The notes below the pieces were generated by a model. It was not told the DNA's origin. It saw only the letters and a list, made by a program, of their open reading frames with translations, and ran no database searches. Of a stretch of DNA of 64,000 nucleotides, positions 22,452 to 35,417 are shown in pieces. Positions within the stretch are counted from its first letter, which is position 1; the number at the start of each line of letters is the position of its first letter. Source of the DNA: Bacilli bacterium (GTDB taxonomy: Bacteria; Bacillota_I; Bacilli_A; RFN20; CAG-826); assembly GCA_035326105.1 (NCBI GenBank), contig DAOKYO010000001.1, forward strand, positions 395,805 through 459,804, written 5' to 3'. The position numbers were made by a program, and so were the translations under genes.

Positions 22452-24300
22452 TAGTAAAGAAAAAGTGTCAGGGGCCACTTATAAGAATAATTCTAAGATG
22501 AGAATGGGAGGACGTGTTGGACACGGGGGCTTTGCTCCCGGCGAAAAGGCCAAAGATTTTAAAGGCTCGGTTAGTAAGTTGCTTGCCTATGGCAAAAGCT
22601 TCGTAATCTTTGGAGTGATTGCTATCATTTTAGCAATAAGCGGCACCACACTGAACATTATCGGTCCACAAAAAATCGGTGACATCACCAATTATATTGT
22701 CAATGGAATCACCGGAACCATCAATTTACCCGAAATCAAAAAACTATCTATCTTTCTTATTGTTATCTATGGTCTAGGCTTTATTTTCAATTATATTCAA
22801 AGTTATATTATGGCGACGATTGCCCAACGCCTCTCTTATAAACTAAGACGGGACATTGATCATAAAATTAATCGCCTTCCTCTCAAGTATTTTGATAATA
22901 ATTCTTACGGAGATGTCTTAAGTCGGGTAACCAATGATGTGGATACGATTGCCCAAACTTTAAACCAAAGTTTAGGGACCTTGGTTAGTGCCATAACCAT
23001 GTTTTTTGGTTCACTTATTATGATGTTTCTTACCAATTATATTATGGCTTTTGCGGCGGTGGCGTCCACTTTAATCGGTTTCTTATTAATGATAATCATC
23101 ATTAGAAAATCACAAAAGTACTTTCTCAATCAGCAAAACGGACTTGGAGCGATAAACGGTCATATAGAAGAAGTATACTCCGGACACACGGTAGTCAAGG
23201 CCTATAACGGAGAAAAGGCTGCGATGCAAACTTTCAATCGCATGAATGACGATTTGTTTATCAATGCTTGGCGGTCGCAATTTCTTTCCGGACTGATGAT
23301 GCCTATCATGCAGTTTATCGGTAACTTCGGCTACGTCGTAGTCTCCATAGTGGGAGCTTTGCTAGCCATTAACGGAAAAATACAATTTGGAGTGATAGCT
23401 TCATTTATGTTATATGTCCGTTTATTCACTCAACCCATGTCGCAATTTGCTCAGGCCGCGAACCGTATTCAATCAGGAGCGGCGGCTTCAGAAAGAGTCT
23501 TCAGTTTTCTTGATGAATCCGAATTGAGTGCTGAACAGGACAAAGCAAATACTCTTAAGGAAGTCAAAGGTGACGTTGAGTTTGATCATGTCAAATTTGG
23601 TTACGACAGTGACAAGGTGATTATTCCCGACTTTTCCATGAAAGCCAAAGCCGGACAAAAGATAGCCATCGTCGGTCCTACCGGTGCCGGTAAAACAACT
23701 TTGGTCAACCTTTTAATGCGCTTTTATGAAGTTCAAGATGGGCAAATTAAAATTGATGGAACTTCCACTTTAGATGTACCGCGGGAAAATGTTCATGACC
23801 AATTCTGTATGGTTCTGCAGGATACGTGGCTCTTTGAAGGAACCATCAAGGAAAATATCGCTTATAGCCGAAAAGGAGTAACGGATGAGATGGTTAAAGA
23901 AGCCTGCAAAGTGGCGGGAATCGACTTCTTTATTCGAACGCTTCCTAACGGCTATGATACCATTTTGACGGACAAATTGAATCTATCCGCTGGTCAAAAA
24001 CAATTGATGACCATTGCCCGGGCGATGATTGTGGATGCGCCCTTATTAATTTTGGATGAGGCCACGAGTTCGGTTGATACCAGAACCGAAATAATAATTC
24101 AAAAAGCGATGGATCGACTTATGCACGGGCGGACAAGTTTTGTCATTGCCCACCGCTTGTCGACTATTAAAAATGCCGATCTAATATTGGTTTTAAAGGA
24201 TGGTAACGTAGTTGAAAGTGGAACCCATATCGAACTATTGGCTAAAAATGGTTTTTATGCCGATTTGTATAATAGCCAATTTGATGCTATGAATGAATAG
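22444..24300 (+). CDS. ABC exporter permease/ATPase fusion, canonical-site partner subunit
   Basis: Walker A GPTGAGKTT; Walker B LLILDEATS; H-loop IAHRLST; signature LSAGQKQ is non-canonical. The start overlaps the previous gene, indicating translational coupling. Confidence 0.8.
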   Translation: MSDSKEKVSGATYKNNSKMRMGGRVGHGGFAPGEKAKDFKGSVSKLLAYGKSFVIFGVIAIILAISGTTLNIIGPQKIGDITNYIVNGITGTINLPEIKKLSIFLIVIYGLGFIFNYIQSYIMATIAQRLSYKLRRDIDHKINRLPLKYFDNNSYGDVLSRVTNDVDTIAQTLNQSLGTLVSAITMFFGSLIMMFLTNYIMAFAAVASTLIGFLLMIIIIRKSQKYFLNQQNGLGAINGHIEEVYSGHTVVKAYNGEKAAMQTFNRMNDDLFINAWRSQFLSGLMMPIMQFIGNFGYVVVSIVGALLAINGKIQFGVIASFMLYVRLFTQPMSQFAQAANRIQSGAAASERVFSFLDESELSAEQDKANTLKEVKGDVEFDHVKFGYDSDKVIIPDFSMKAKAGQKIAIVGPTGAGKTTLVNLLMRFYEVQDGQIKIDGTSTLDVPRENVHDQFCMVLQDTWLFEGTIKENIAYSRKGVTDEMVKEACKVAGIDFFIRTLPNGYDTILTDKLNLSAGQKQLMTIARAMIVDAPLLILDEATSSVDTRTEIIIQKAMDRLMHGRTSFVIAHRLSTIKNADLILVLKDGNVVESGTHIELLAKNGFYADLYNSQFDAMNE

Positions 24301-24323
24301 TAAGTAATTTACTGTAAAAAGCA

Positions 24324-24351
24324 TTGACTTATTAACCGCTGCCGATAGAAT
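24324..24351 (+). promoter_or_regulatory. Promoter TTGACT-16nt-TAGAAT driving the T-box leader
   Basis: Near-consensus hexamers about 300 nt upstream of the ORF start. Confidence 0.5.
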
Positions 24352-24357
24352 ATAGTT

Positions 24358-24625
24358 AACCAAATATTAAAAGACGCTGATGAAGAGAAAAGTTTTAAAT
24401 CTAAATTTAGAGAGTCCAGTCGCGGTGCAAATGGAAATTAGATTGAAACAAAATATACACTTCGGAGTCGGAGGCTGAAACTAGTAGGCACTCCCGGTAG
24501 TTGTCCGTTAAAACGACTAGAGTTGTTGGACTCGATAAGTGATGGCTATGGCCATAATTAGGGTGGTACCGCGGAATATCTGAACGATTTTCGTCCCTGT
24601 GAAAGCAAGGAGAAAATCGTTTTTT
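24358..24625 (+). promoter_or_regulatory. T-box riboswitch leader (tRNA-sensing transcription antiterminator)
   Basis: AGAGA motif at 24384-24388; F-box CCGTTA at 24505-24510; Stem III hairpin ATGGC/GCCAT at 24541-24556; canonical T-box sequence AATTAGGGTGGTACCGCGG at 24556-24574; terminator CGATTTTC...GAAAATCG plus T6 at 24585-24625 whose 5' arm can alternatively pair with the T-box sequence. Confidence 0.8.
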
Positions 24626-24654
24626 ATTTTCTCCCGTTTAGAAAGGAGAACTAT

Positions 24655-26106
24655 ATGTTCCACATTGCCAGATTTAAAGCCGAGCCGTTTCCGTTAGAAA
24701 TGCACAAAGTACGAGTTGTTCAGAAATTAAATTTACTTCCGATTGATGAACGATTACAAGCGATTCAAGAAGCCGGGAATAACACTTTTCTTTTAAGAAA
24801 TCGCGATGTCTTTCTTGATATGCTAACCGATAGTGGAACCAACGCGATGAGCGATCGGCAAATTGCCTCAATGTCCATCGCCGATGATTCTTATGCCGGA
24901 AGCGAGACATTCTTTCGCTTAGAGAAAGTTCTGCAAGATTTTTTCGGCATGAAGTTTTTTCTTCCTGCCCATCAAGGGAGGGCTTGTGAGCATATCATAG
25001 CCAAGGTATTTGTTAAGCCGAACGATGTCGTTCCGATGAACTACCATTTTACCACGACCAAAGCCCATATTATGGAATGCGGAGGAAGGGTGGAAGAGTG
25101 TTTCTTTGATAAGGCCATTATTCCGGAAAGCGAAAATCCATTTAAGGGCGATATGGATCTGGAGAAATTAAAAGCTCTCATCGGTCGCGTTGGTAAAGAC
25201 AGGATACCTTTTGTGCGCTTAGAGATGGGAACAAATCTCATCGGCGGGCAACCGGTTTCACTGCATAACATCAAAGAGGTCGGCGAATTTTGCCATCAAA
25301 ATAATATAATGCTGGTAATTGATGCTTCCCTTTTATCGGATAATCTTTTCTTTATTAAAACCCGGGAAGCGATAGCGGAGAATATGAGTATTCATGATAT
25401 TGTTCTGGCTATAGCCAAGACTGCCGATATCATCTATTTCTCCGGAAGAAAACTCGGAAGTGCCCGCGGTGGTGGCATTATTACTCCGCACCAAGAACTT
25501 TTCGATAAAATGAAGAATCTTATTCCACTATTTGAAGGATTTCTTACTTACGGAGGGATGTCGGTCCGGGAAATGGAGGCTTTGGCTGTGGGAATCGAAG
25601 AGACACTGGATATTGATATGATATCTCAGGGTCCGGAGTTTATCGCGGCATTTGGGCAGATGCTCCAAAAAAATGGCATCCCGGTTATTACTCCATTTGG
25701 GGGATTAGGATTACATCTTAACGCGCGGGCATTTATTCCCCATGTTAAATCGGAAGAATATCCGGCGGGAGCATTAGCCGCGGCAATATATATTGTCAGT
25801 GGCGCCCGCGGGATGGAGCGGGGGACGATATCAGAAACGCGCAATGCCGATGGCAGTGAGCATCCGGCTAGCATGGAACTTGTGCGTCTAGCCCTTCCGC
25901 GGCGAGTATTTACTCTTTCGCAAATAACCTTTATTGCCGATCGTTTAAATTGGCTTTTTGAAAATCGCAATCTTATCGGCGGACTGCATTTTGTGGAGGA
26001 ACCAAAAGTTATGCGTTTCTTTATTGGTCGTTTAAAGGAAAATGGCGATTGGCAAGAAAAACTGAAAGAAAAGTTCATCGAAGATTTTGGTATCGATGCC
26101 CTATAA
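24655..26106 (+). CDS. Tryptophanase / tyrosine phenol-lyase family PLP-dependent beta-eliminating lyase
   Basis: Alignable with E. coli TnaA along its length (FLLRNRDVFLDMLTDSGTNAMSD, FFLPAHQGRACEHI, GGQPVSLHNIKEV, FEGFLTYGGMSVREMEALAVG; PLP-Lys region SGRKLGSARGG). RBS AAGGAG. Confidence 0.8.
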   Translation: MFHIARFKAEPFPLEMHKVRVVQKLNLLPIDERLQAIQEAGNNTFLLRNRDVFLDMLTDSGTNAMSDRQIASMSIADDSYAGSETFFRLEKVLQDFFGMKFFLPAHQGRACEHIIAKVFVKPNDVVPMNYHFTTTKAHIMECGGRVEECFFDKAIIPESENPFKGDMDLEKLKALIGRVGKDRIPFVRLEMGTNLIGGQPVSLHNIKEVGEFCHQNNIMLVIDASLLSDNLFFIKTREAIAENMSIHDIVLAIAKTADIIYFSGRKLGSARGGGIITPHQELFDKMKNLIPLFEGFLTYGGMSVREMEALAVGIEETLDIDMISQGPEFIAAFGQMLQKNGIPVITPFGGLGLHLNARAFIPHVKSEEYPAGALAAAIYIVSGARGMERGTISETRNADGSEHPASMELVRLALPRRVFTLSQITFIADRLNWLFENRNLIGGLHFVEEPKVMRFFIGRLKENGDWQEKLKEKFIEDFGIDAL

Positions 26107-26116
26107 AATATGAAAA

Positions 26117-26144
26117 AGGACACACATATGCGTGTCCTTATTTT
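26117..26144. terminator. Bidirectional terminator hairpin (AGGACACAC-ATAT-GCGTGTCCT) between convergent genes
   Basis: Near-perfect 9-bp stem flanked by an A-run on the 5' side and a T-run on the 3' side. Confidence 0.6.
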
Positions 26145-27037
26145 ATAAACGTAAAACGATTACGACCTTTATTTTTGCTCTCATACATCCCTTGATCGGC
26201 CCGTCGTGTGATCGACTCCTCGTCATCATTTTTTTGGGCAATGGTAATGCCGACGGAAATAGTGACCGATATATTGTTACCATGGTCAACAAAATTGGAA
26301 TTTTTGACTAAAGTAATGGCATGACTGGCAATTTCTTCTAACTCACGGGGGGAATGGCAACCGGAGATAACCATAAATTCCTCTCCTCCCCATCGACCGA
26401 TAAAGGTCGGCTCAGTGAATATATCTGAAAGCGTGGTGGCAACCATTTTTAGTACTTTATCGCCCGTATCATGGCCATATGTATCATTAATCGACTTGAA
26501 GTGGTCGATATCAATCATCATAACGGAAAAGGAAAGATTAAGATCATTATATTGCCGAATAAAATTCTTGAGCGTTGAATCGATATAGCGGCGGTTAGGA
26601 ATACCCGTCAGTTGATCATGGAGGGCCAAATAGGTAAGTTCGTCAATCTTGGAGACGGGGATATTGTCACTGTTATGAACAAAAAACTCGAATGCACCGA
26701 CAATTTCGCCATTTACTATCAACGGAACCGTACGGATAGTAACCGCGACACGATGCCCCTTTTTATGATGAAGATAGACCTTAGCTTCTCGACGAATACC
26801 ATCATTCATTGTTTTGGATAGAGGACAGGCCGTTGTACATAGGCATATCCCTTCTTCATCAACGTGGTTTAAAATGTTATCAAAACAGTGGTAGTTGACC
26901 ACTTCCTTTTCTCCGTAACCGGAAATTTTTTCCGCTTCTTTATTCCAATACAAAATTTTACGGTCCTTATCAACGTAATAGACTCCATCATAACTTGTAT
27001 CCAAAATTTTGGCATACTCATCGATTTTTTCTTTCAT
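26138..27037 (-). CDS. PAS-domain diguanylate cyclase (GGDEF)
   Basis: N-terminal PAS (YYVDKDRKILYWNKEAEKISGY); GGDEF catalytic motif RWGGEEFMVI. Confidence 0.85.
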   Translation of the reverse strand: MKEKIDEYAKILDTSYDGVYYVDKDRKILYWNKEAEKISGYGEKEVVNYHCFDNILNHVDEEGICLCTTACPLSKTMNDGIRREAKVYLHHKKGHRVAVTIRTVPLIVNGEIVGAFEFFVHNSDNIPVSKIDELTYLALHDQLTGIPNRRYIDSTLKNFIRQYNDLNLSFSVMMIDIDHFKSINDTYGHDTGDKVLKMVATTLSDIFTEPTFIGRWGGEEFMVISGCHSPRELEEIASHAITLVKNSNFVDHGNNISVTISVGITIAQKNDDEESITRRADQGMYESKNKGRNRFTFIK

Positions 27038-27523
27038 TGGTTCTCCCGGAAAGGTAAGACATTTATTCTGCCTGATTAAATGGACTCAAAAGACATTAAA
27101 ACAAAAACCATCCAGGATGATTATACACAAGTGTCGATTAAAAATGCGAGCGATTAACACTAAGCAACTTAAAAATTAAGTAAAAGTATAATTTATTCAA
27201 TAAAAGCATTCTCTTTTTATTTTATTAAGAAATAACTTATATTATGAGTAGCAATAGCTTCTTAAAAAATATATTAATAATTGATAAAACATATACTCTG
27301 GGATGTAGGTAAAGAAGAAAATTTGCTATCGCTTGTTATCATTGGGGAACGAACTTTTTATCCGGGCAAAAAATAATCAGTTTTCATCGGTCGTTTCTAA
27401 CTTTTAATCATTTATGCTATCATATTATTTGTCAGGATGAAGCTTTAAGTGGAACCAGTAATAACAACAAATAATTTTATCGATTTGGCGTTGGGGGCGT
27501 TCAAATAAACGAAGGAGTCTTTT

Positions 27524-29329
27524 ATGCAACAGCTCTTTATCGGGACTAAACTATTTATCGTTGGTTTATCTTTAAACGACATCGAATTAATAACTCTCGT
27601 AGTTATCTTATTTTTAGCGTTAGGTCTCGTGGTATTATCGGTTATAATCTCATATATCAGTCATCGTCGGAAATTGGCGCGGTTTACGGTTTCGTCGTTA
27701 AAAATCGGAGTGATTGCCACCAATCGCCATCGGCGAATTTTTTACGTAAATCCGGCGATGGAAGAATTGACAGGCTATACATTTAAGGAATTAAAAAACA
27801 AAAATCCGCGCATATTATCGAGCGGGCGCCACGATTCCACCTTCTATCATAATATGTGGAATGATATTCGTGATAAAGGATTTTGGACGGGAGAAATGTG
27901 GGACCGGAGAAAAGATGGTACACTTTATCCCAAGCGCATCAGTATTTATGCTATTCGAGGGGTTTTTGGCCTTGGTATTAGCTATGTCAGCACTCACGAG
28001 GATCTCTCTATCGCACATAAAACGGAAGAGCAAATTACTTTTTTAAGAGACTATGTTCCTAGCACCAATCTTTTAAATCAAAATGCGATGATTCAACGGA
28101 TGAATGCCCTTATTGATGACAAGAAACCCTTCTCAATCATTTTCCTGCGGGTGAGCAATTATAGTTATCTTCAAATCACTCAGTCACAGGAGAAATACTA
28201 TCGAGCGATTGTAAGTTTTATCGAACACTTAGCAATCCAGATGAATATGCCTTCGGAATCGTTTGCTCAAATTAGCGACGACTCACTGTTAATTATCTCT
28301 CCCTTAAGCGAAATAAGCGCAATCACGGCCTTTGTAGAAGAAATAATCCGTCTTGATGAACGGGAGATTAATTTTAACAATGAGGATAATCTTCTTTTCA
28401 CCTTCAAATGCGGAATCAGCCGGTATCCAGAGGATGGGGTTAGTGCGGTTACTCTTTTGACCAACGCGCAAATAGCGACAAGTAAAATTAATGAGGATAG
28501 CAAGCGCGATTATATATTCTATCGTCCTGAACTATCACAAAAAATAACCGAAGACGAAAAGATAAAAGAACAACTTGTTAATGGTATTAAAAATAATGAG
28601 TTTGAACTTTTCTATCAACCCAAGATTGATATTCAAAATAATGTAGTGGTTGGGGCGGAAGGTTTATTACGGTGGCGATCTCCGACCCTGGGATTGGTTT
28701 CCCCGATGCGTTTTATCCCGGTAGCGGAGCGCTTAGGATTAATGAATGATATCGGCGCATTTGTTATTCGCAAAGCGGTAAATGATCTAGTTATTATCAA
28801 TAGTATTTTTAACAAAAAGCACCTTCAATTTTCGGTTAATACGACCGCTTCGCAGTATGTTCAAAATCGCTTGTATGAAACGCTTATTGAAGTACTCGGC
28901 AACTCGCATATCGATGCTAAGCAATTGGAGTTGGAAATCACCGAGAGTATCCTGATTGACGATCGGGCGCAAATGATAGCCTACCTTAGTAAAATCAGAG
29001 AATTAGGAGTTACTATTTCCCTGGACGATTTTGGTACGGGATATTCATCGCTCGGATATATTCGGGACATGCCGATTGATACGTTAAAGATTGACCGTAG
29101 TTTTATTAAGGATTATCCGAAGGATGATGACGGAAAAGTGGCGGAAGCGATTATTTCTTTAGCGCATCTTTTTAATCTAAAACTTGTGGCTGAAGGAGCC
29201 GAAACCCTTGAACAAGTGGAGTTTCTACGGGAAAAGAAGTGTCAGATGGTTCAGGGATACTACTATGCAAAGCCACTTCAATTTGCGGATTTTATTGATT
29301 TTGTTAAAAATTTCGACAGTAAAAAGTAA
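27524..29329 (+). CDS. Membrane-anchored PAS / degenerate-GGDEF / EAL c-di-GMP phosphodiesterase
   Basis: Two N-terminal TM helices; PAS; central GGDEF-like region lacking a GG(D/E)EF motif; EAL domain with ELEITES, DDFGTGYSSL and KIDRSF motifs. Confidence 0.8.
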   Translation: MQQLFIGTKLFIVGLSLNDIELITLVVILFLALGLVVLSVIISYISHRRKLARFTVSSLKIGVIATNRHRRIFYVNPAMEELTGYTFKELKNKNPRILSSGRHDSTFYHNMWNDIRDKGFWTGEMWDRRKDGTLYPKRISIYAIRGVFGLGISYVSTHEDLSIAHKTEEQITFLRDYVPSTNLLNQNAMIQRMNALIDDKKPFSIIFLRVSNYSYLQITQSQEKYYRAIVSFIEHLAIQMNMPSESFAQISDDSLLIISPLSEISAITAFVEEIIRLDEREINFNNEDNLLFTFKCGISRYPEDGVSAVTLLTNAQIATSKINEDSKRDYIFYRPELSQKITEDEKIKEQLVNGIKNNEFELFYQPKIDIQNNVVVGAEGLLRWRSPTLGLVSPMRFIPVAERLGLMNDIGAFVIRKAVNDLVIINSIFNKKHLQFSVNTTASQYVQNRLYETLIEVLGNSHIDAKQLELEITESILIDDRAQMIAYLSKIRELGVTISLDDFGTGYSSLGYIRDMPIDTLKIDRSFIKDYPKDDDGKVAEAIISLAHLFNLKLVAEGAETLEQVEFLREKKCQMVQGYYYAKPLQFADFIDFVKNFDSKK

Positions 29330-29379
29330 TTCATCGAGATTTCTTTAGGCTTATTAAGCCAGACGAGGGAGCAAGAAAT

Positions 29380-30399
29380 ATGAAAGTATTCATCATTGGC
29401 GGGACGGGTTTGTTGGGTTCAGAAACAGCCCGTGTATTATTGGATCGCGGACACGAAGTAAGTTCATTGGCTCTGCCTCCGCTTCCGCATGGAGTAGCCC
29501 TGCCCAAAGCCATGAAAATTAGCTATGGAAACTATATGGATATGAGTGACGAAGAATTAAAGAGCCAGTTTATCGGCATGGATGCTTTTGTTTTTGCTGC
29601 CGGAATCGACGAACGAGTGGAAGGCAAACCACCGGTTTATGAAATGTTTAAGAAGTATAACATCGATGCTTTGGAACGTTCGCTTCGCTTGGCGAAGGAG
29701 GCAGGAGTAAAACACGTGGCTATTTGCGGCTCCTATTTTGCTTATTTTGCCCGCCGTTTTCCAGAATGGAGATTAACTGAGTATCATCCCTATATTCGCT
29801 CGCGAATCGATCAAGAAGAAATGGCGCTTTCATTTGCCGATGCCGATTTTGCGGTATCGATATTGGAATTACCATATATTTTTGGCACGCAATTAGGAAG
29901 AAAACCGGTTTGGACGTTTCTAGTGGAAATGATCCGAGCTATGAAAATAGCAACTTTTTATCCTCGGGGAGGGACGACGATGGTTACCGTCCACCAGGTG
30001 GCGGAAGGATTGGCCGGAGCATTAACGAATAATCAAGGTGGGACCCTTTATCCATTTGGTTACTATAATATGACCTGGAAAGAAATGCTGACTGTTTTCC
30101 ATAAACACATGGGTTATTCACCCAAGCGGAAGATTATAACAATACCGGATTTCCTATTTAGAATGAAGGGTCGTCAAATTGACCGTATGCGCGCCCGTCA
30201 CAATATTGAGGGCGGACTTAATATGGCTAAGTTTACCCAAATGCAAACCACAAATTTGTTTATCAACAAGGAAGAAGGGGCGGAATTTCTGGGAGTTAAG
30301 CCCGATGATATAGAAGCGCGCATCGGTGATTCGGTCAGTCTATGTCTCGATATTATCGATAATAAGGTAAATGATGTCGTCGACATGAAAGGCGAATAA
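29380..30399 (+). CDS. NAD-dependent epimerase/dehydratase family (extended SDR) protein
   Basis: N-terminal Rossmann motif MKVFIIGGTGLLGSETAR. Confidence 0.7.
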   Translation: MKVFIIGGTGLLGSETARVLLDRGHEVSSLALPPLPHGVALPKAMKISYGNYMDMSDEELKSQFIGMDAFVFAAGIDERVEGKPPVYEMFKKYNIDALERSLRLAKEAGVKHVAICGSYFAYFARRFPEWRLTEYHPYIRSRIDQEEMALSFADADFAVSILELPYIFGTQLGRKPVWTFLVEMIRAMKIATFYPRGGTTMVTVHQVAEGLAGALTNNQGGTLYPFGYYNMTWKEMLTVFHKHMGYSPKRKIITIPDFLFRMKGRQIDRMRARHNIEGGLNMAKFTQMQTTNLFINKEEGAEFLGVKPDDIEARIGDSVSLCLDIIDNKVNDVVDMKGE

Positions 30400-30466
30400 C
30401 TCATTTTAAGTTTGATATATAATACATTTCAATCGTGGTAATATATTATTTAAACAGGGAAAACTT

Positions 30467-31063
30467 ATGAACACACACAAAGATTTTGTCACGCCGATTA
30501 TCGTTGGTTTGATTATTCTTTCATCCGTTACTTCAGGGACGCTGGTTATGGTATTCCATGATGAGTTTATCGGGCAAGCCATCACCACCATTACGGCGGT
30601 TATCGGTGCTTGCGCGATTTGGCTGCAGATGAACAAGAACAAGCGCCTTAACGAAGGCGAATTTATCGTCAATTTGAACAAGCAGTTCACAGAGAATAAG
30701 TTGACTTATGATTTGTTCTTGAAAATGGAGAAGTATGAACGAACGGATAAAGTAAATAATCCATTTACCGAGGATGATATTTCGGCGATTGCGGCCTACA
30801 TGACTTTTTTTGAGGTGATATATTCCTTGATATCAAGAAAGATAATAAAAATTTGGATGATTGATGATTTGTTTGCTTATCAGTTTTTTCTTTTAATAAA
30901 TAATGCCCGGGTGCAAGAGATCGAATTACTGCCCTGCCAAAAGTATTATGTCAATGTTTTCCGCTTGGCCAAACTATGGCATGAATATCGAGATCAGCAA
31001 GGCTGCAGTGTTCTTAATGATGAAGATAATATATTGAAAAAAATTAGCATTTCTTTAATTTAA
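30467..31063 (+). CDS. Hypothetical membrane protein (2 N-terminal TM helices plus cytoplasmic domain)
   Basis: 198-aa ORF in an AT-rich stretch; no recognisable motif. Confidence 0.5.
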   Translation: MNTHKDFVTPIIVGLIILSSVTSGTLVMVFHDEFIGQAITTITAVIGACAIWLQMNKNKRLNEGEFIVNLNKQFTENKLTYDLFLKMEKYERTDKVNNPFTEDDISAIAAYMTFFEVIYSLISRKIIKIWMIDDLFAYQFFLLINNARVQEIELLPCQKYYVNVFRLAKLWHEYRDQQGCSVLNDEDNILKKISISLI

Positions 31064-31064
31064 T

Positions 31065-31607
31065 ATGATTGAGCAATATTTTGTCCGGCCGGCAGAGCTA
31101 AGCGACTTAGCGGTAATCATGGAAATTGAAAGCCTCTCTTTTAATGCCAATACTCAAGAGAGCAGCGATGTTTTTAAAAAGCGAATAATGTATTTTGCGG
31201 AAGGATTTTACATCTTTCTATATCAAGCGCAAGTGATCGGATTTTTAACTTCGGAAATCTGGTCAAAATTACCGACGCAAGAAGACAATAATTTGGCAAT
31301 TAACCATTCAATAGAGGATGTTCTGAATAAAAAGGGATCGGTTCTTTACATTTCTTCATTTGAATTACATCCTCAATTCCGAAATAAGGGACTAGGAACC
31401 TATTTTTTTGATTGCTATTTAAAAGATATTAAAAGGAAATTTCATCAATTAAATAAGGCGGTGCTTATTGTTAATGAAAATTGGCTTCAGGCCATCAGTA
31501 TCTATCGCAAACAAGATTTTAAGTTGGCATTTGATATAAAAAAGTTCTTTATTGAAGAGAACGGAAATAAAAGCGCAGGACTGGTCTTAATTAGAAATTT
31601 CAATTAG
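31065..31607 (+). CDS. GNAT family N-acetyltransferase
   Basis: FRNKGLGTYFF CoA-binding motif. Confidence 0.6.
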   Translation: MIEQYFVRPAELSDLAVIMEIESLSFNANTQESSDVFKKRIMYFAEGFYIFLYQAQVIGFLTSEIWSKLPTQEDNNLAINHSIEDVLNKKGSVLYISSFELHPQFRNKGLGTYFFDCYLKDIKRKFHQLNKAVLIVNENWLQAISIYRKQDFKLAFDIKKFFIEENGNKSAGLVLIRNFN

Positions 31608-32572
31608 TTAAATTTGATTCCGTTGTGTTTGATTAAAAAATCGACAACCCCCATGCAAAAAGAGGTTTTTTCAACAAGGGAACTGGAGAATTCACTGCGT
31701 TCCAGAGCCTTTAAAAAAGTCGGCAGTGTATAGTTCATATAATTTATTTGCGGACGGGAGAAAACCATCTCCGCTTTTTTTTCATTTAAAACGACCGTTA
31801 CTTGGGTGGGATTGGCAATATCCGTAATATATATTGTTCCCTTCTCTCCTTCAATGACGGAAGATTGAAAATTATCGGCAACTTTTGAGTAAAAAAGGGT
31901 TCCCATATAATCTTCATATTTTACCGTCATAAAACCATTTTTTTCCATTCCGTTTTCAAGAAAAAATGACTGGCCGGTTATATTGATTGGATTAGAGAAT
32001 AGTTCTATGGTCGCGGCGATCAAATAAACCCCTAAATCTAGGATAGCAGCGTTGCCTTTCTTGGGATCAAAGGTAGAAATGTATTCATGATGAAGATATT
32101 TACTGTAGCGTGAGGACTGTTTTTCCATCCGCAAAGTGAAATTTTTAATTTTTCCAATGCGTTTAATTTGCTCACGAATAACGAAAAAAGCGGGGTCATA
32201 ATAGACGCGCATATTCTCCATAATAAGGGTATTATTCATTGCCGCTAAACCGACCAAATCATTAGCCTCTTCCAAAGTAATTGTGAAAGGTTTTTCAAGT
32301 AAAACCGCCTTATGGGCGTTAATTAAAGTCCTAGCCATCGGATAATGATTTTGATTTGGAGAAGCGATATAAACAGCATCGACAGCCCGGTCAAAAGCTA
32401 TTTCTTCAATGGAAGTGTAGACTTTCTTTATTTGATAGCGGTTTGCAAAAAGGCGGGCTTTTTCCGGACTGCTGCCTAATATGCCGATAACCTTATAGTC
32501 AGAATAAAGGGCGATTTCATCCATAAAAGCGTCCGATATGAAATTGGTTCCAACTACCGCAAAATTTTTCAT
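31604..32572 (-). CDS. Gfo/Idh/MocA family NAD(P)-dependent oxidoreductase
   Basis: N-terminal Rossmann KNFAVVGTNFISDAF...GILGSSPEKARLFA; EKP motif (LLEKPF). Confidence 0.8.
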   Translation of the reverse strand: MKNFAVVGTNFISDAFMDEIALYSDYKVIGILGSSPEKARLFANRYQIKKVYTSIEEIAFDRAVDAVYIASPNQNHYPMARTLINAHKAVLLEKPFTITLEEANDLVGLAAMNNTLIMENMRVYYDPAFFVIREQIKRIGKIKNFTLRMEKQSSRYSKYLHHEYISTFDPKKGNAAILDLGVYLIAATIELFSNPINITGQSFFLENGMEKNGFMTVKYEDYMGTLFYSKVADNFQSSVIEGEKGTIYITDIANPTQVTVVLNEKKAEMVFSRPQINYMNYTLPTFLKALERSEFSSSLVEKTSFCMGVVDFLIKHNGIKFN

Positions 32573-32820
32573 TTCTAAACCTCAATATGAAAATAGTTAT
32601 ATCTACATATTCCTACTCAATAATAGCAAAAAATAAAAGGAAGTTAAGGTCATAAAAACTTTTTTATTTTATAATGGAGTTTATTTTAATACTAGACAAG
32701 TCAATTTTTTTCTTACATTTGCTGTTGAGAAGTTTTAGAAAACAGGAGTAATAAAACATTATGCCACCGCAAATAAATGCGGTTTATTTTTGTTTGATAA
32801 AACTTATGTGGATTTCTATT

Positions 32821-33078
32821 CTATCTCTTGATCTTCTTTCTGAGTTTTTCGTCAGGAATAAAGCTTTGCCCTCTATGTGAATCTCTATCCTTGCTTCTAT
32901 TAATTCCTTGATCCAATAAAGCGTGACCTGGCACTCCATCTTTGGATCTTACTGCGGCAATATCAAAGCCATCTTTTCTATTGGACTTTGGATTTAACTC
33001 TTTGTAAGTCGCCACATAATCCTTTTCGTTGGCAGGTGATTTTCTATTTGTAACAATCTTATTTGGATATTTAGACAT
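32821..33078 (-). CDS. Small basic hypothetical protein (85 aa), third gene of the ATPase/Toprim islet
   Basis: Tightly linked (20 nt) downstream of the Toprim-like gene on the same strand; K/R/D/S-rich with no Cys; no recognisable family. Confidence 0.4.
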   Translation of the reverse strand: MSKYPNKIVTNRKSPANEKDYVATYKELNPKSNRKDGFDIAAVRSKDGVPGHALLDQGINRSKDRDSHRGQSFIPDEKLRKKIKR

Positions 33079-33098
33079 ACTTTAACCTCCTTTCTTTG

Positions 33099-33782
33099 TT
33101 ACTCGATTTTTTCAATTAGCGCGTTAATTTTTTTAAAAAAATTTTCATCACCATCTTTTAAAGCATTTAGCATTGGCAAAAGATTACTGGCTGGCAAATT
33201 TTCCTTATAATTTTGTGGCAAACTACGGGCATTTTCTAATAGATTTGAGTATGTATATTCGTTGTTTATAATCGAATATTTAATTATTTCCAATTGCCAC
33301 TTACTTGCGTTATATTCAGGTTTAATCTTCCTTCCCAATTCATCAGTTTTTTTGGAATTTATTGCCGGCCAATATCTATGAACATACTCAGAGTTTGTAG
33401 ATTTAGAAGTTGAGGTTAAAGCAACTTGGTTCAAGCAATTAGCTGCTAACAAAAAGAACTGCAAAATATTGGGATTTGTGCAGAAACTTATAGAATCTAC
33501 AATAGAATCATCTTCAAAAAGTAACATCAATTGTCTTCTCACTATATTATAGGGCGAATTTGTATCTTTGATTTTATTATCGACATCATAAACACAAATT
33601 ACACAATCAAATAAAGCATCTTCACGCAAAGCAGAAAGAAATGCATCTGCGATACCGCCACATCCATTTGCGTTTTCCACATCAAGAGCAAATTTTTCAT
33701 TTGTAGCCAATTGTTCAACAATGTCAAAAAACACTTTTTCTTCATTGCCTTCCACAATAATCTTGATGTAATACTTTCCCAT
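33099..33782 (-). CDS. Toprim-like nuclease-domain protein (OLD-family/DUF4435/DUF4276-like partner of an ABC ATPase)
   Basis: N-terminal IIVEGNEE (Toprim conserved Glu in a beta-strand) and CVICVYDVDNK (Toprim DxD) with about 55-aa spacing; 227 aa; start 3 nt after the ATPase stop. Confidence 0.55.
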   Translation of the reverse strand: MGKYYIKIIVEGNEEKVFFDIVEQLATNEKFALDVENANGCGGIADAFLSALREDALFDCVICVYDVDNKIKDTNSPYNIVRRQLMLLFEDDSIVDSISFCTNPNILQFFLLAANCLNQVALTSTSKSTNSEYVHRYWPAINSKKTDELGRKIKPEYNASKWQLEIIKYSIINNEYTYSNLLENARSLPQNYKENLPASNLLPMLNALKDGDENFFKKINALIEKIE

Positions 33783-33785
33783 AAA

Positions 33786-35048
33786 TCACTCTTTATTAAG
33801 TGATGACAGATATTTAACAAAATTCGGAGATGGAACATAGCCAAATTCCGATCGATTATAATGCCTAAGCAAATCTTCGGCAGTTCTAGGCCCACCTTCC
33901 GCAACAGGCGCATCTTTCAAGCAAAACAACTTGCTCGTTAAGTCATCATTTCTAAAAGAAAAATAAATTTGATCTTTACGCATCATATGCTTGCAAGAAA
34001 TCAATTCAATATCATGAGCAGTGAATAGTAGTTGTCCTTTTGTGTTGGCAAAGCTATTAAATGTGGCTAAAATAGCTCTTGATAGTTTGAAATGTAAGCC
34101 ATTATCTAATTCATCAATAATCAGCGTTTTCCCGTTGATAATCGTTTCATAAATATAAGATGCAATGGCTTCAATTTTCTTAGTCCCAGTTGAGTCAAAT
34201 ATTATTGAAGGAACTTCGGCTCCATCATATTTCGTAAAAAGTCTAAACTGATCAATTATATCTATTTTTTTCAACACTTCTTCATCTATAATTTCGTTAT
34301 TTTTACCTTTAAAAATTGCTTTTTCATTATAATGAAAATCTTGAATTGATAAATCAGCGTGCTTTATAAAATCTACAATGAACTTCTTTTTATTTTCATC
34401 TTTTCCCTTCAAAACATCGATAGTTTTTTCAATTGGAATATTAAACAATTGGATAATTTCCAATGAATCGGCAAATGATTTAAAAGACTTCAAATAAGGT
34501 TTAAGTGATGCAAAAACATCGTTATCCAATGATACGCAGTACAAGAATGGTTTTTTTGAAGGTAATAATTTCAATAAATCAGACTTATCAATTCCTAAAA
34601 TGACCAGTATTTCTTTTTCTCTATCTCTTGAATAAACGTTCTTAATTGAAAAATTACCCGTTTCATAAAACACGACTTCATCTAATGCTTCCTTAATGAT
34701 TTCATGCTTAAAACTATCATAGGTAAAAGAGTACTTCATCCAGTTTATATCAGCGCTTGTTTTGAATGTGATGGAAATATCACTCCTTGCGGAATCCCCA
34801 AAAATATTCCTATTAAAAGAAATATTTTCAACTCCAAGCATTAAGTCCTTTATAAGCTTCGTCAAATGCAAGACATTTGATTTTCCAATATTATTTTGTC
34901 CATACAAGCCAATAGATTTTAAAACATTGCGATTTAGTAAACTAAAGTAATTTGACCCTAATTTTTTTATTCTAGTATCTGCCGAGAACGATAATACATT
35001 TTCGCTTTTAAACATTTTATAGTTATCAAATCTCATTTCCAAAATCAT
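33786..35048 (-). CDS. ABC-type/AAA_21-like ATPase (OLD/PARIS AriA/AbiLi-like)
   Basis: Walker A GQNNIGKSN near the N-terminus; far C-terminal Walker B LIIDELDNGLH (D-loop) and H-loop FTAHD; long insert between the A and B motifs as in OLD-family ABC ATPases. Confidence 0.7.
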   Translation of the reverse strand: MILEMRFDNYKMFKSENVLSFSADTRIKKLGSNYFSLLNRNVLKSIGLYGQNNIGKSNVLHLTKLIKDLMLGVENISFNRNIFGDSARSDISITFKTSADINWMKYSFTYDSFKHEIIKEALDEVVFYETGNFSIKNVYSRDREKEILVILGIDKSDLLKLLPSKKPFLYCVSLDNDVFASLKPYLKSFKSFADSLEIIQLFNIPIEKTIDVLKGKDENKKKFIVDFIKHADLSIQDFHYNEKAIFKGKNNEIIDEEVLKKIDIIDQFRLFTKYDGAEVPSIIFDSTGTKKIEAIASYIYETIINGKTLIIDELDNGLHFKLSRAILATFNSFANTKGQLLFTAHDIELISCKHMMRKDQIYFSFRNDDLTSKLFCLKDAPVAEGGPRTAEDLLRHYNRSEFGYVPSPNFVKYLSSLNKE

Positions 35049-35417
35049 AATATTTACCTCTTCGATGAAGATAATATCATGTTATTATATTTTATGCAAT
35101 GTTTTAGCACGAAACATAATTTATTCTTAACTTAATCTGAAGAGCATTTGCTTTCGGTATAAAAAATTTCCTAGTAAAAAGAAATAGAAATTTATTTTTG
35201 TGTCTATCAAAGCAGCATCAAGTTTTTGATTTTCTATAAAGGAAGGGTTAGTTGCCATTTTACCAAATGATGTCTTTAAATAATAGTGACCGATAATTAG
35301 AAAAAGCGCTGCGCAGATAATTAATGATTGATATAATAATCGTCTTTTTAGCTATAGAAAGTTAAAAGGTTTATCCTTTTGTCGATATTGTTTATAATAA
35401 AAAAGAGGTTTTATTTT

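Follow-up and report, generated by a model that had tools for sequence, protein, structure and literature searches.

The defense system AbiL is described as a two-gene combination of an ATP-binding cassette (ABC) ATPase and a TOPRIM protein, and PARIS as a sensor or antitoxin joined to a tRNA-cleaving Toprim protein (PMC13064643; PMC11464382). In PARIS, an ATPase hexamer sequesters the Toprim effector until a trigger frees it to cleave tRNA-Lys (PMC11464382; PMC13064643). AAA and TOPRIM_OLD proteins have been validated as toxin-antitoxin pairs in neutralization assays, and the NetFlax work on toxin-antitoxin networks, which highlighted AAA+Toprim and ImmA/M78-peptidase (Rosmer-like) zones, describes hyperpromiscuous accessory or antitoxin domains such as Panacea/DUF4065 (PMC10440598). 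Here, we describe a three-gene operon from an uncultured Bacilli bacterium, found in a stretch of 64,000 nucleotides that we refer to as the window (assembly GCA_035326105.1, contig DAOKYO010000001.1, positions 395,805 to 459,804 of the forward strand). We consider it probable that this operon is cargo in which a divergent AbiL-type module, encoded by genes 1 and 2, is combined with a partner-independent accessory, gene 3, that belongs to a portable unit. While an AbiL-like system of ATPase and Toprim protein is known, the divergence of this Toprim partner and the undescribed, portable small gene attached to the pair are new.

The three genes are co-oriented, with gaps of 3 nt between genes 1 and 2 and of 20 nt between genes 2 and 3, and lie exactly where a preliminary description of this stretch had placed them (Table 1). 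That description took gene 1 for an ABC ATPase and gene 2 for a Toprim protein from motifs that are indeed present, namely GQNNIGKSN, LIIDELDNGLH and FTAHD at residues 50, 309 and 342 of gene 1, and IIVEGNEE and YDVDN at residues 8 and 65 of gene 2, and this reading holds. Gene 1 exceeds the threshold of Pfam AAA_21 (3.9e-18; 67 bits, cutoff 27) and matches the PADLOC model for AbiLi (PDLC02335) at 2.3e-54 over residues 1-409, i.e. nearly the whole protein. The PADLOC model for AriA (PDLC02980) fits much less well: its match reaches 1.1e-17 and covers the generic AAA_21 region. Other ATPase models score lower. The Walker A (G50-N58, including K56), Walker B/D-loop (309-319) and H-loop (342-346) motifs are intact. 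Gene 1 is, by sequence, an AbiLi-type ABC ATPase.

Gene 2 has a weak match to PADLOC AbiLii (1.4e-4) and stays below the gathering cutoff of Pfam RloB (PF13707; 15.6 bits, cutoff 31.5), which places its sequence marginally in the AbiLii/RloB group. Other families that had been suggested for it found no match in Pfam or PADLOC, neither DUF4435 (PF14491) and AriB, both at E<=1, nor DUF4276. Its AlphaFold model is very confident (predicted local distance difference test, pLDDT, 94.2; predicted template modeling score, pTM, 0.90) and shows E11 just past strand 1 and the DxD motif at the end of strand 3, the canonical Toprim geometry; the fold is that of an OLD-type Toprim protein. These positions are also among the residues that are invariant in the 65 homologs of the family, which extend down to 32% identity: E11, G12, E14, E15, D59 and D66-V-D68. 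Searches of the PDB with sequence profiles of genes 2 and 3 gave nothing significant. We regard genes 1 and 2 as a divergent, AbiL-type defense pair of ABC ATPase and Toprim protein, ordinary in kind.

Several features set this pair apart from described systems. Compared with AbiL of Lactococcus lactis and with RloA/RloB, the Toprim protein is barely recognizable by family models, an 85-aa gene is appended, and the locus is chromosomal, on a 0.91-Mb contig in a metagenome-assembled genome (MAG) of an uncultured member of the Bacilli; a tblastn search with gene 2 in the 72,556 plasmids of PLSDB gave no match. Moreover, RloAB sits with type I restriction-modification genes, whereas no hsd genes lie by this operon, which is bordered by an oxidoreductase gene and an ExoIII-type one, followed by GNAT and DUF1508 genes, all of them kept in a sister genome. 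Class 1 (P2 Old) and class 2 OLD proteins and GajA of Gabija carry ATPase and Toprim domains in one polypeptide, as opposed to two genes here, and Gabija needs a UvrD-like helicase, of which there is none in the operon. PARIS, with AriA and AriB, shares the split ABC ATPase and the Toprim nuclease and offers the best-understood mechanistic model. AriB, however, is a DUF4435 Toprim protein, and gene 1 fits AbiLi much better than AriA; of the earlier proposal of a PARIS- or AbiL-like candidate, the AbiL half therefore stands and the PARIS half does not. A stretch in gene 3, GHALL..NRSKD..H, presumably bears a loose resemblance to HNH motifs and could suggest a Septu-like system with a miniature HNH nuclease. 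In Septu, the HNH nuclease partner is PtuB. Neither gene 2 nor gene 3 has an HNH match, and a fold search with gene 3 found no HNH structure. Despite the AriA match of gene 1, PARIS and a Septu-like system are thus both contradicted, and we hold them to be extremely improbable.

Pairs of the same type are conserved together and adjacent in several other loci (L002, L003-5, L015 and L040), and their neighborhoods are unrelated: the L002 pair lies by Schlafen-like and HipA genes, and those of L003-5 by IS21 fragments. The ATPase-Toprim pair is mobile, recurring in unrelated contexts. Following the PARIS and AbiL literature, the ABC ATPase would probably oligomerize, keep the Toprim protein inactive and sense infection, while gene 2, presumably the toxic effector, would act as an OLD/RloB-type nuclease. 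A phage cue would then release it to cut nucleic acids, possibly tRNA as in PARIS, and the infection would abort.

The pair might instead be a plain type II toxin-antitoxin addiction module, with an AAA antitoxin and a Toprim toxin, which stabilizes the acquired segment and has no anti-phage role. The neutralization assays on AAA+TOPRIM_OLD pairs (PMC10440598) fit this explanation, as does the finding that viral contigs, annotated phages and plasmids contain no relatives of gene 2. The same collections contain no relatives of gene 3. Toxin-antitoxin behavior and abortive infection are nevertheless compatible, PARIS being an example of both (PMC13064643), and the islands that harbor homologous pairs and gene 3 loci also carry Thoeris, SIR2, AbiH, Abi_2, HipA and Schlafen-like genes. 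A pure addiction module therefore appears unlikely to us.

The operon stands out from its surroundings by composition, as had been noted before. Its coding sequences have a GC content of 31.3%, compared with 39.2% for the window. Sliding segments of 2,228 bp average 39.1% (standard deviation 2.6%). No more than 2% of them reach so low a value, and the ten with the least GC are all located here, which argues against chance. GC at third codon positions is 0.26-0.33 in the three genes and 0.38 in each flanking gene. These flanking genes are those named before, a Gfo/Idh/MocA oxidoreductase (PF01408/PF22725) and an Exo_endo_phos/ExoIII-type gene. The oxidoreductase has one close ortholog, with 86% identity, in a sister Bacilli genome (L033-L035). 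By blastn, this genome is about 84% identical to the window over positions 23602-32674 and again from 35353 onward. It keeps DUF1508 and ExoIII on one side of the slot, and the oxidoreductase, GNAT, a 198-aa open reading frame (ORF) and an epimerase on the other, so that the operon is not part of the core genome. Since the similarity ends sharply at 32674 and resumes at 35353, the strain-specific segment spans 32675-35352. Besides the three genes, it includes the region upstream of them and the hairpin that follows gene 3. Horizontally acquired cargo between two conserved housekeeping genes, encoding one operon, is the best explanation. In the slot between ExoIII and the oxidoreductase, the sister genome has an RCC1/WD40_RLD-repeat gene of 417-423 aa instead, and the slot consequently appears to be a site of recurrent cargo turnover without obvious repeats or integrase. 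No meaningful direct or inverted repeats flank the segment, a tRNA scan of 20000-48000 found none, in line with the earlier remark that there is no tRNA flank, and the ORF list for 30-38 kb contains no integrase, although no search aimed at integrases was made.

Gene 3 is evidently a real gene under purifying selection. It has a strong Shine-Dalgarno sequence, AAGGAGG, 7 nt before its ATG, and 43 homologs of about 85 aa and 52-72% identity, with 22 invariant residues; dN/dS between pairs has a median of 0.146 and is nowhere above 0.36. Among 1.84 billion proteins, the family has 44 cluster representatives, confined to MAGs of Bacilli/Acholeplasmataceae. The protein is basic (isoelectric point 10.1; family median 10.0), and its AlphaFold (AF2) model is confident (pLDDT 86.6; pTM 0.73). 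It matches nothing in Pfam, PADLOC, NCBIfam or PHROG, and a fold search found no match in the PDB or BFVD. One match to the gene 3 profile, the 845-aa protein P0138, was spurious and due to a helical repeat.

This gene travels as a unit. We aligned gene 3 and its flanks from ten loci with different upstream modules. The similarity sets in about 15 nt ahead of the ATG, with a Shine-Dalgarno block (GAAAGGAGG), covers the gene and, in most of the loci, stops at a hairpin followed by a T-run, i.e. a terminator; upstream of the Shine-Dalgarno block, the sequences are unrelated. Gene 3 identity is also independent of the module type, with the copy in L036 (type A2) being 96% identical to a type C copy, and the two type A copies, from the window and L015, sharing 64%. 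Given these borders and this indifference to the partner, either the upstream modules are swapped against a stable gene 3 unit, or, within a lineage, it is the unit that changes from one module to another. We also considered gene 3 as a core gene that borders a defense hotspot, and rejected this for the window, where it lies inside the strain-specific segment; the wide variety of its downstream contexts is a second reason.

In each of the 24 non-duplicate loci, gene 3 comes after a gene of the same strand, usually at a distance of 16-30 nt, and it closes at least seven different toxin or defense modules (Table 1). The trio of the window recurs in L015, from a different MAG (77, 62 and 64% identity for genes 1 to 3), and L036 has a divergent version. 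The preliminary description had suggested an undescribed variant, which can be read as a dedicated three-component AbiL system with gene 3 as an obligatory subunit. The co-orientation, the 20-nt gap and the recurrence of the trio speak for it, but homologous pairs occur without gene 3, gene 3 trails at least six other, unrelated module types, and its two type A copies are less alike than copies across module types. This proposal is thus unsupported, and we consider it rather improbable; gene 3 is not, as far as its distribution indicates, an AbiL-specific component. The L002 pair has no third gene in its operon, the third gene of L003-5 encodes a 263-aa protein other than gene 3, and in L040 an unrelated 72-aa ORF (L040:2936-3154) begins 3 nt after a pair of 424 and 215 aa. 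It seems that small add-on genes are generally accommodated in the third position after such pairs.

Table 1. Features of the operon and of loci carrying gene 3. Positions without a locus designation refer to the window.
Feature	Location	Strand	Description
Gene 1	33786-35048	minus	420 aa; AbiLi-like ABC (AAA_21) ATPase
Gene 2	33099-33782	minus	227 aa; RloB/AbiLii-like OLD-type Toprim protein, presumed nuclease effector
Gene 3	32821-33078	minus	85 aa, basic; last gene of the operon; undescribed family
Cargo segment (islet)	32675-35352		bounded by loss and return of similarity to the sister genome
Shine-Dalgarno block AAAGAAAGGAGG	33086-33097	minus	read from the sequence; accompanies gene 3
Hairpin ACCGCATTTATTTGCGGT	32766-32783	minus	3' of gene 3; probable operon terminator, though a weak one, that may act in both directions
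Tentative promoter TTGCAT-17 nt-TATTAT	35071-35099	minus	upstream of gene 1, within the cargo segment; read by eye
RCC1/WD40_RLD-repeat gene in the sister's slot	L033:6541-7794; L035:6047-7318; L034:6531-7833		split into 85 + 351 aa in L034
Gene 3 partner	L006/7, L010/11		AbiLi-like 378-aa ATPase + 166-aa protein
Gene 3 partner, type C	L012, L014, L020		AbiLi/PDC-M12A-like ATPase + PDC-M12B/AbiLii/RloB-like protein of 254-268 aa; L037/38 and L022 placed in this AbiLi/PDC-M12A-like + PDC-M12B group solely from the sizes of their genes and an N-terminal motif
Gene 3 partner, type A2	L036		distant gene 2-family pair, 419 + 210 aa; hhalign probability 98.4%
Gene 3 partner, type D	L016/17/19, L025-31		helix-turn-helix (HTH) protein + M78 peptidase (CapH/CapP-like) + 186-aa protein
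Gene 3 partner	L039		117-aa protein + HTH-M78 fusion, Rosmer-like layout
Gene 3 partner	L023/24		TacA antitoxin + GNAT toxin
Gene 3 partner	L021		HEPN/Mrr-like 301-aa protein
Mini-ORF region after gene 3	L012:7259-7330; L010:6259-6330; L006:6259-6330; L036:6331-6400; L021:5259-5330; L039:6262-6330
Type D conserved tail	L019:2422-2580; L027:5262-5420; L025/L028-L030; L018:7247-7400

At this point, two views of gene 3 have to be weighed. It could be an independent hitch-hiker cassette, with a function of its own or with none that concerns defense, that borrows the transcription of an upstream toxic operon and does no joint work with the AbiL-type pair. This is the main rival for gene 3, and we regard it as a possible, though less favored, explanation. 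It agrees with the identity pattern, with the unit's own conserved Shine-Dalgarno sequence and terminator, and with pairs of the gene 2 family that lack gene 3. It also agrees with two cases of decay: in L008/9, gene 3 is intact beside a largely deleted partner, and in L020 it is frameshifted beside an apparently intact one, which makes a strict co-dependence of gene 3 and its partner unlikely. On the other hand, the strict co-orientation is with modules of the toxin or defense type, the short gaps leave no room for a promoter, and gene 3 was never found after a housekeeping gene, albeit in a biased sample.

We favor the view that the unit, with its own Shine-Dalgarno sequence, 85-aa gene and terminator, closes many toxin-antitoxin or defense operons in Acholeplasma-like Bacilli, and that gene 3 is co-expressed with toxic modules. 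With low confidence, we propose that it is a partner-independent nucleic-acid-binding accessory, because it is basic, its family has two conserved Asn-Arg motifs and no strictly conserved pair of histidines, and it does not co-vary with its partners. Going further, gene 3 may found a new hyperpromiscuous accessory family with a fold unseen so far, which would modulate AbiL-like, ImmA/Rosmer-like, TacAT and HEPN modules via a partner-independent target, though we advance this idea only tentatively. Such a protein could bind RNA, tRNA or the operon transcript, as a generic safety catch or amplifier. Like the Panacea/DUF4065-type domains of NetFlax, gene 3 joins many unrelated toxic modules, including AAA+Toprim and ImmA/M78-peptidase types. 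Unlike them, it is similar to no described domain in sequence or fold, has a narrow taxonomic range and is appended to modules that already look complete, such as TacA+GNAT; for this reason, it is not obviously an antitoxin.

Two considerations weigh against our overall interpretation. The family has no experimental link to phage resistance, with the mechanism of AbiL itself being untested (PMC13064643), and most gene 3 loci were found by searching for gene 3, so that their association with defense comes without a background rate.

The pair adds a divergent branch to the defense systems built of ABC ATPase and Toprim protein. Because gene 2 falls under the curated Pfam RloB threshold and has a weak AbiLii match in PADLOC, the number of such systems in uncultured Bacilli is probably underestimated. 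The more useful lead is gene 3, a conserved and selected small protein attached to at least seven toxic modules. Should it modulate them, immunity of the toxin-antitoxin type would have a new generic accessory, and the assembly of these operons could be approached through it; as a hitch-hiker, it would still mark a recombination joint where defense modules swap.

Many gene 3 loci belong to defense islands, among whose genes are Thoeris, SIR2, Abi_2, AbiH, Fic and a fusion of PARIS-like type. In six loci from rumen or gut Bacilli (L006, L008, L010, L013, L036 and L037), the islands lie in or beside cell-surface polysaccharide loci with UDP-glucose dehydrogenase, LicD, glycosyltransferases and Polysacc_synt_2. 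They hold Thoeris (ThsA_Macro/TIR), SIR2, Fic, Abi_2 and AbiH, as well as a DNA methylase with HATPase_c_3 and an AAA_21-DUF4435 fusion. In L024:1691-4370 and L023:1072-3754, TacA, GNAT and gene 3 are followed by a DUF6119 protein (541 aa, 7e-125) and then by a protein with a metallo-beta-lactamase fold, which are possibly another two-gene defense candidate. Two loci have tRNA genes downstream of gene 3: an unusually long tRNA-Arg(TCT) of 89 nt at L008:6454-6542, 145 nt away, and a tRNA-Leu(CAA) at L036:7186-7259, about 850 nt away; scans of 14 other gene 3 loci found none. Spare tRNAs near these modules are perhaps of note because PARIS-type Toprim effectors cleave tRNA, or they may be a coincidence.

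In L008 (5631-6047) and L009, the remnant beside gene 3 is a 138-aa ORF, 90% identical to residues 123-253 of the 256-aa RloB-like type C protein of L012. As these loci also have upstream Abi_2/radical-SAM genes in common, L008/9 derives from a deletion that removed the ATPase together with half of the Toprim-like gene and left gene 3 intact. A further copy, in a Bacilli MAG and a locus unrelated to that of the window (L018:6986-7246; JAKVOO010000001.1), has an ATA start codon and stands behind the tail of a 186-aa gene of type D that has decayed.

Concerning signals in the window, the hairpin after gene 3 was listed by the terminator scan on the plus strand, and its T-run on the minus strand is poor; at other gene 3 loci, hairpin and T-run are stronger and lie within about 60 nt. 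The tentative promoter of gene 1 is absent from the list of the consensus promoter scan. Upstream of gene 1, the cargo segment also contains a 43-aa ORF on the same strand (MATNPSFIENQKLDAALIDTKINFYFFLLGNFLYRKQMLFRLS; 35127-35258, minus strand), which is probably spurious. Rfam searches of the cargo segment and of five gene 3 loci found no known RNA.

Directly after the gene 3 stop codon, an SD-like GGAG is retained in seven of the ten aligned loci, together with a mini-ORF of 4-6 codons (ATG AGT TCA ...), which encodes MSSF*, MSSLK* or MSSQK* and stops a few bases short of the terminator hairpin. The region is degenerate in the window (32784-32820), and the 95-aa homolog P0067 reads through into it (...KKRTENNMSSFK). 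Its translation could attenuate the terminator, or the mini-ORF is just a conserved 3' untranslated region (UTR). In type D loci, gene 3 is followed by another conserved tail, about 150 nt long (..GGTGCGTAA..TGTATCAAAATAGGTCA..CAACCCAT..), also without an Rfam match, that ends in a strong terminator (GGTYTGATAC..GTATCAAACC and T-run) and may represent a small RNA or an element of the 3' UTR.

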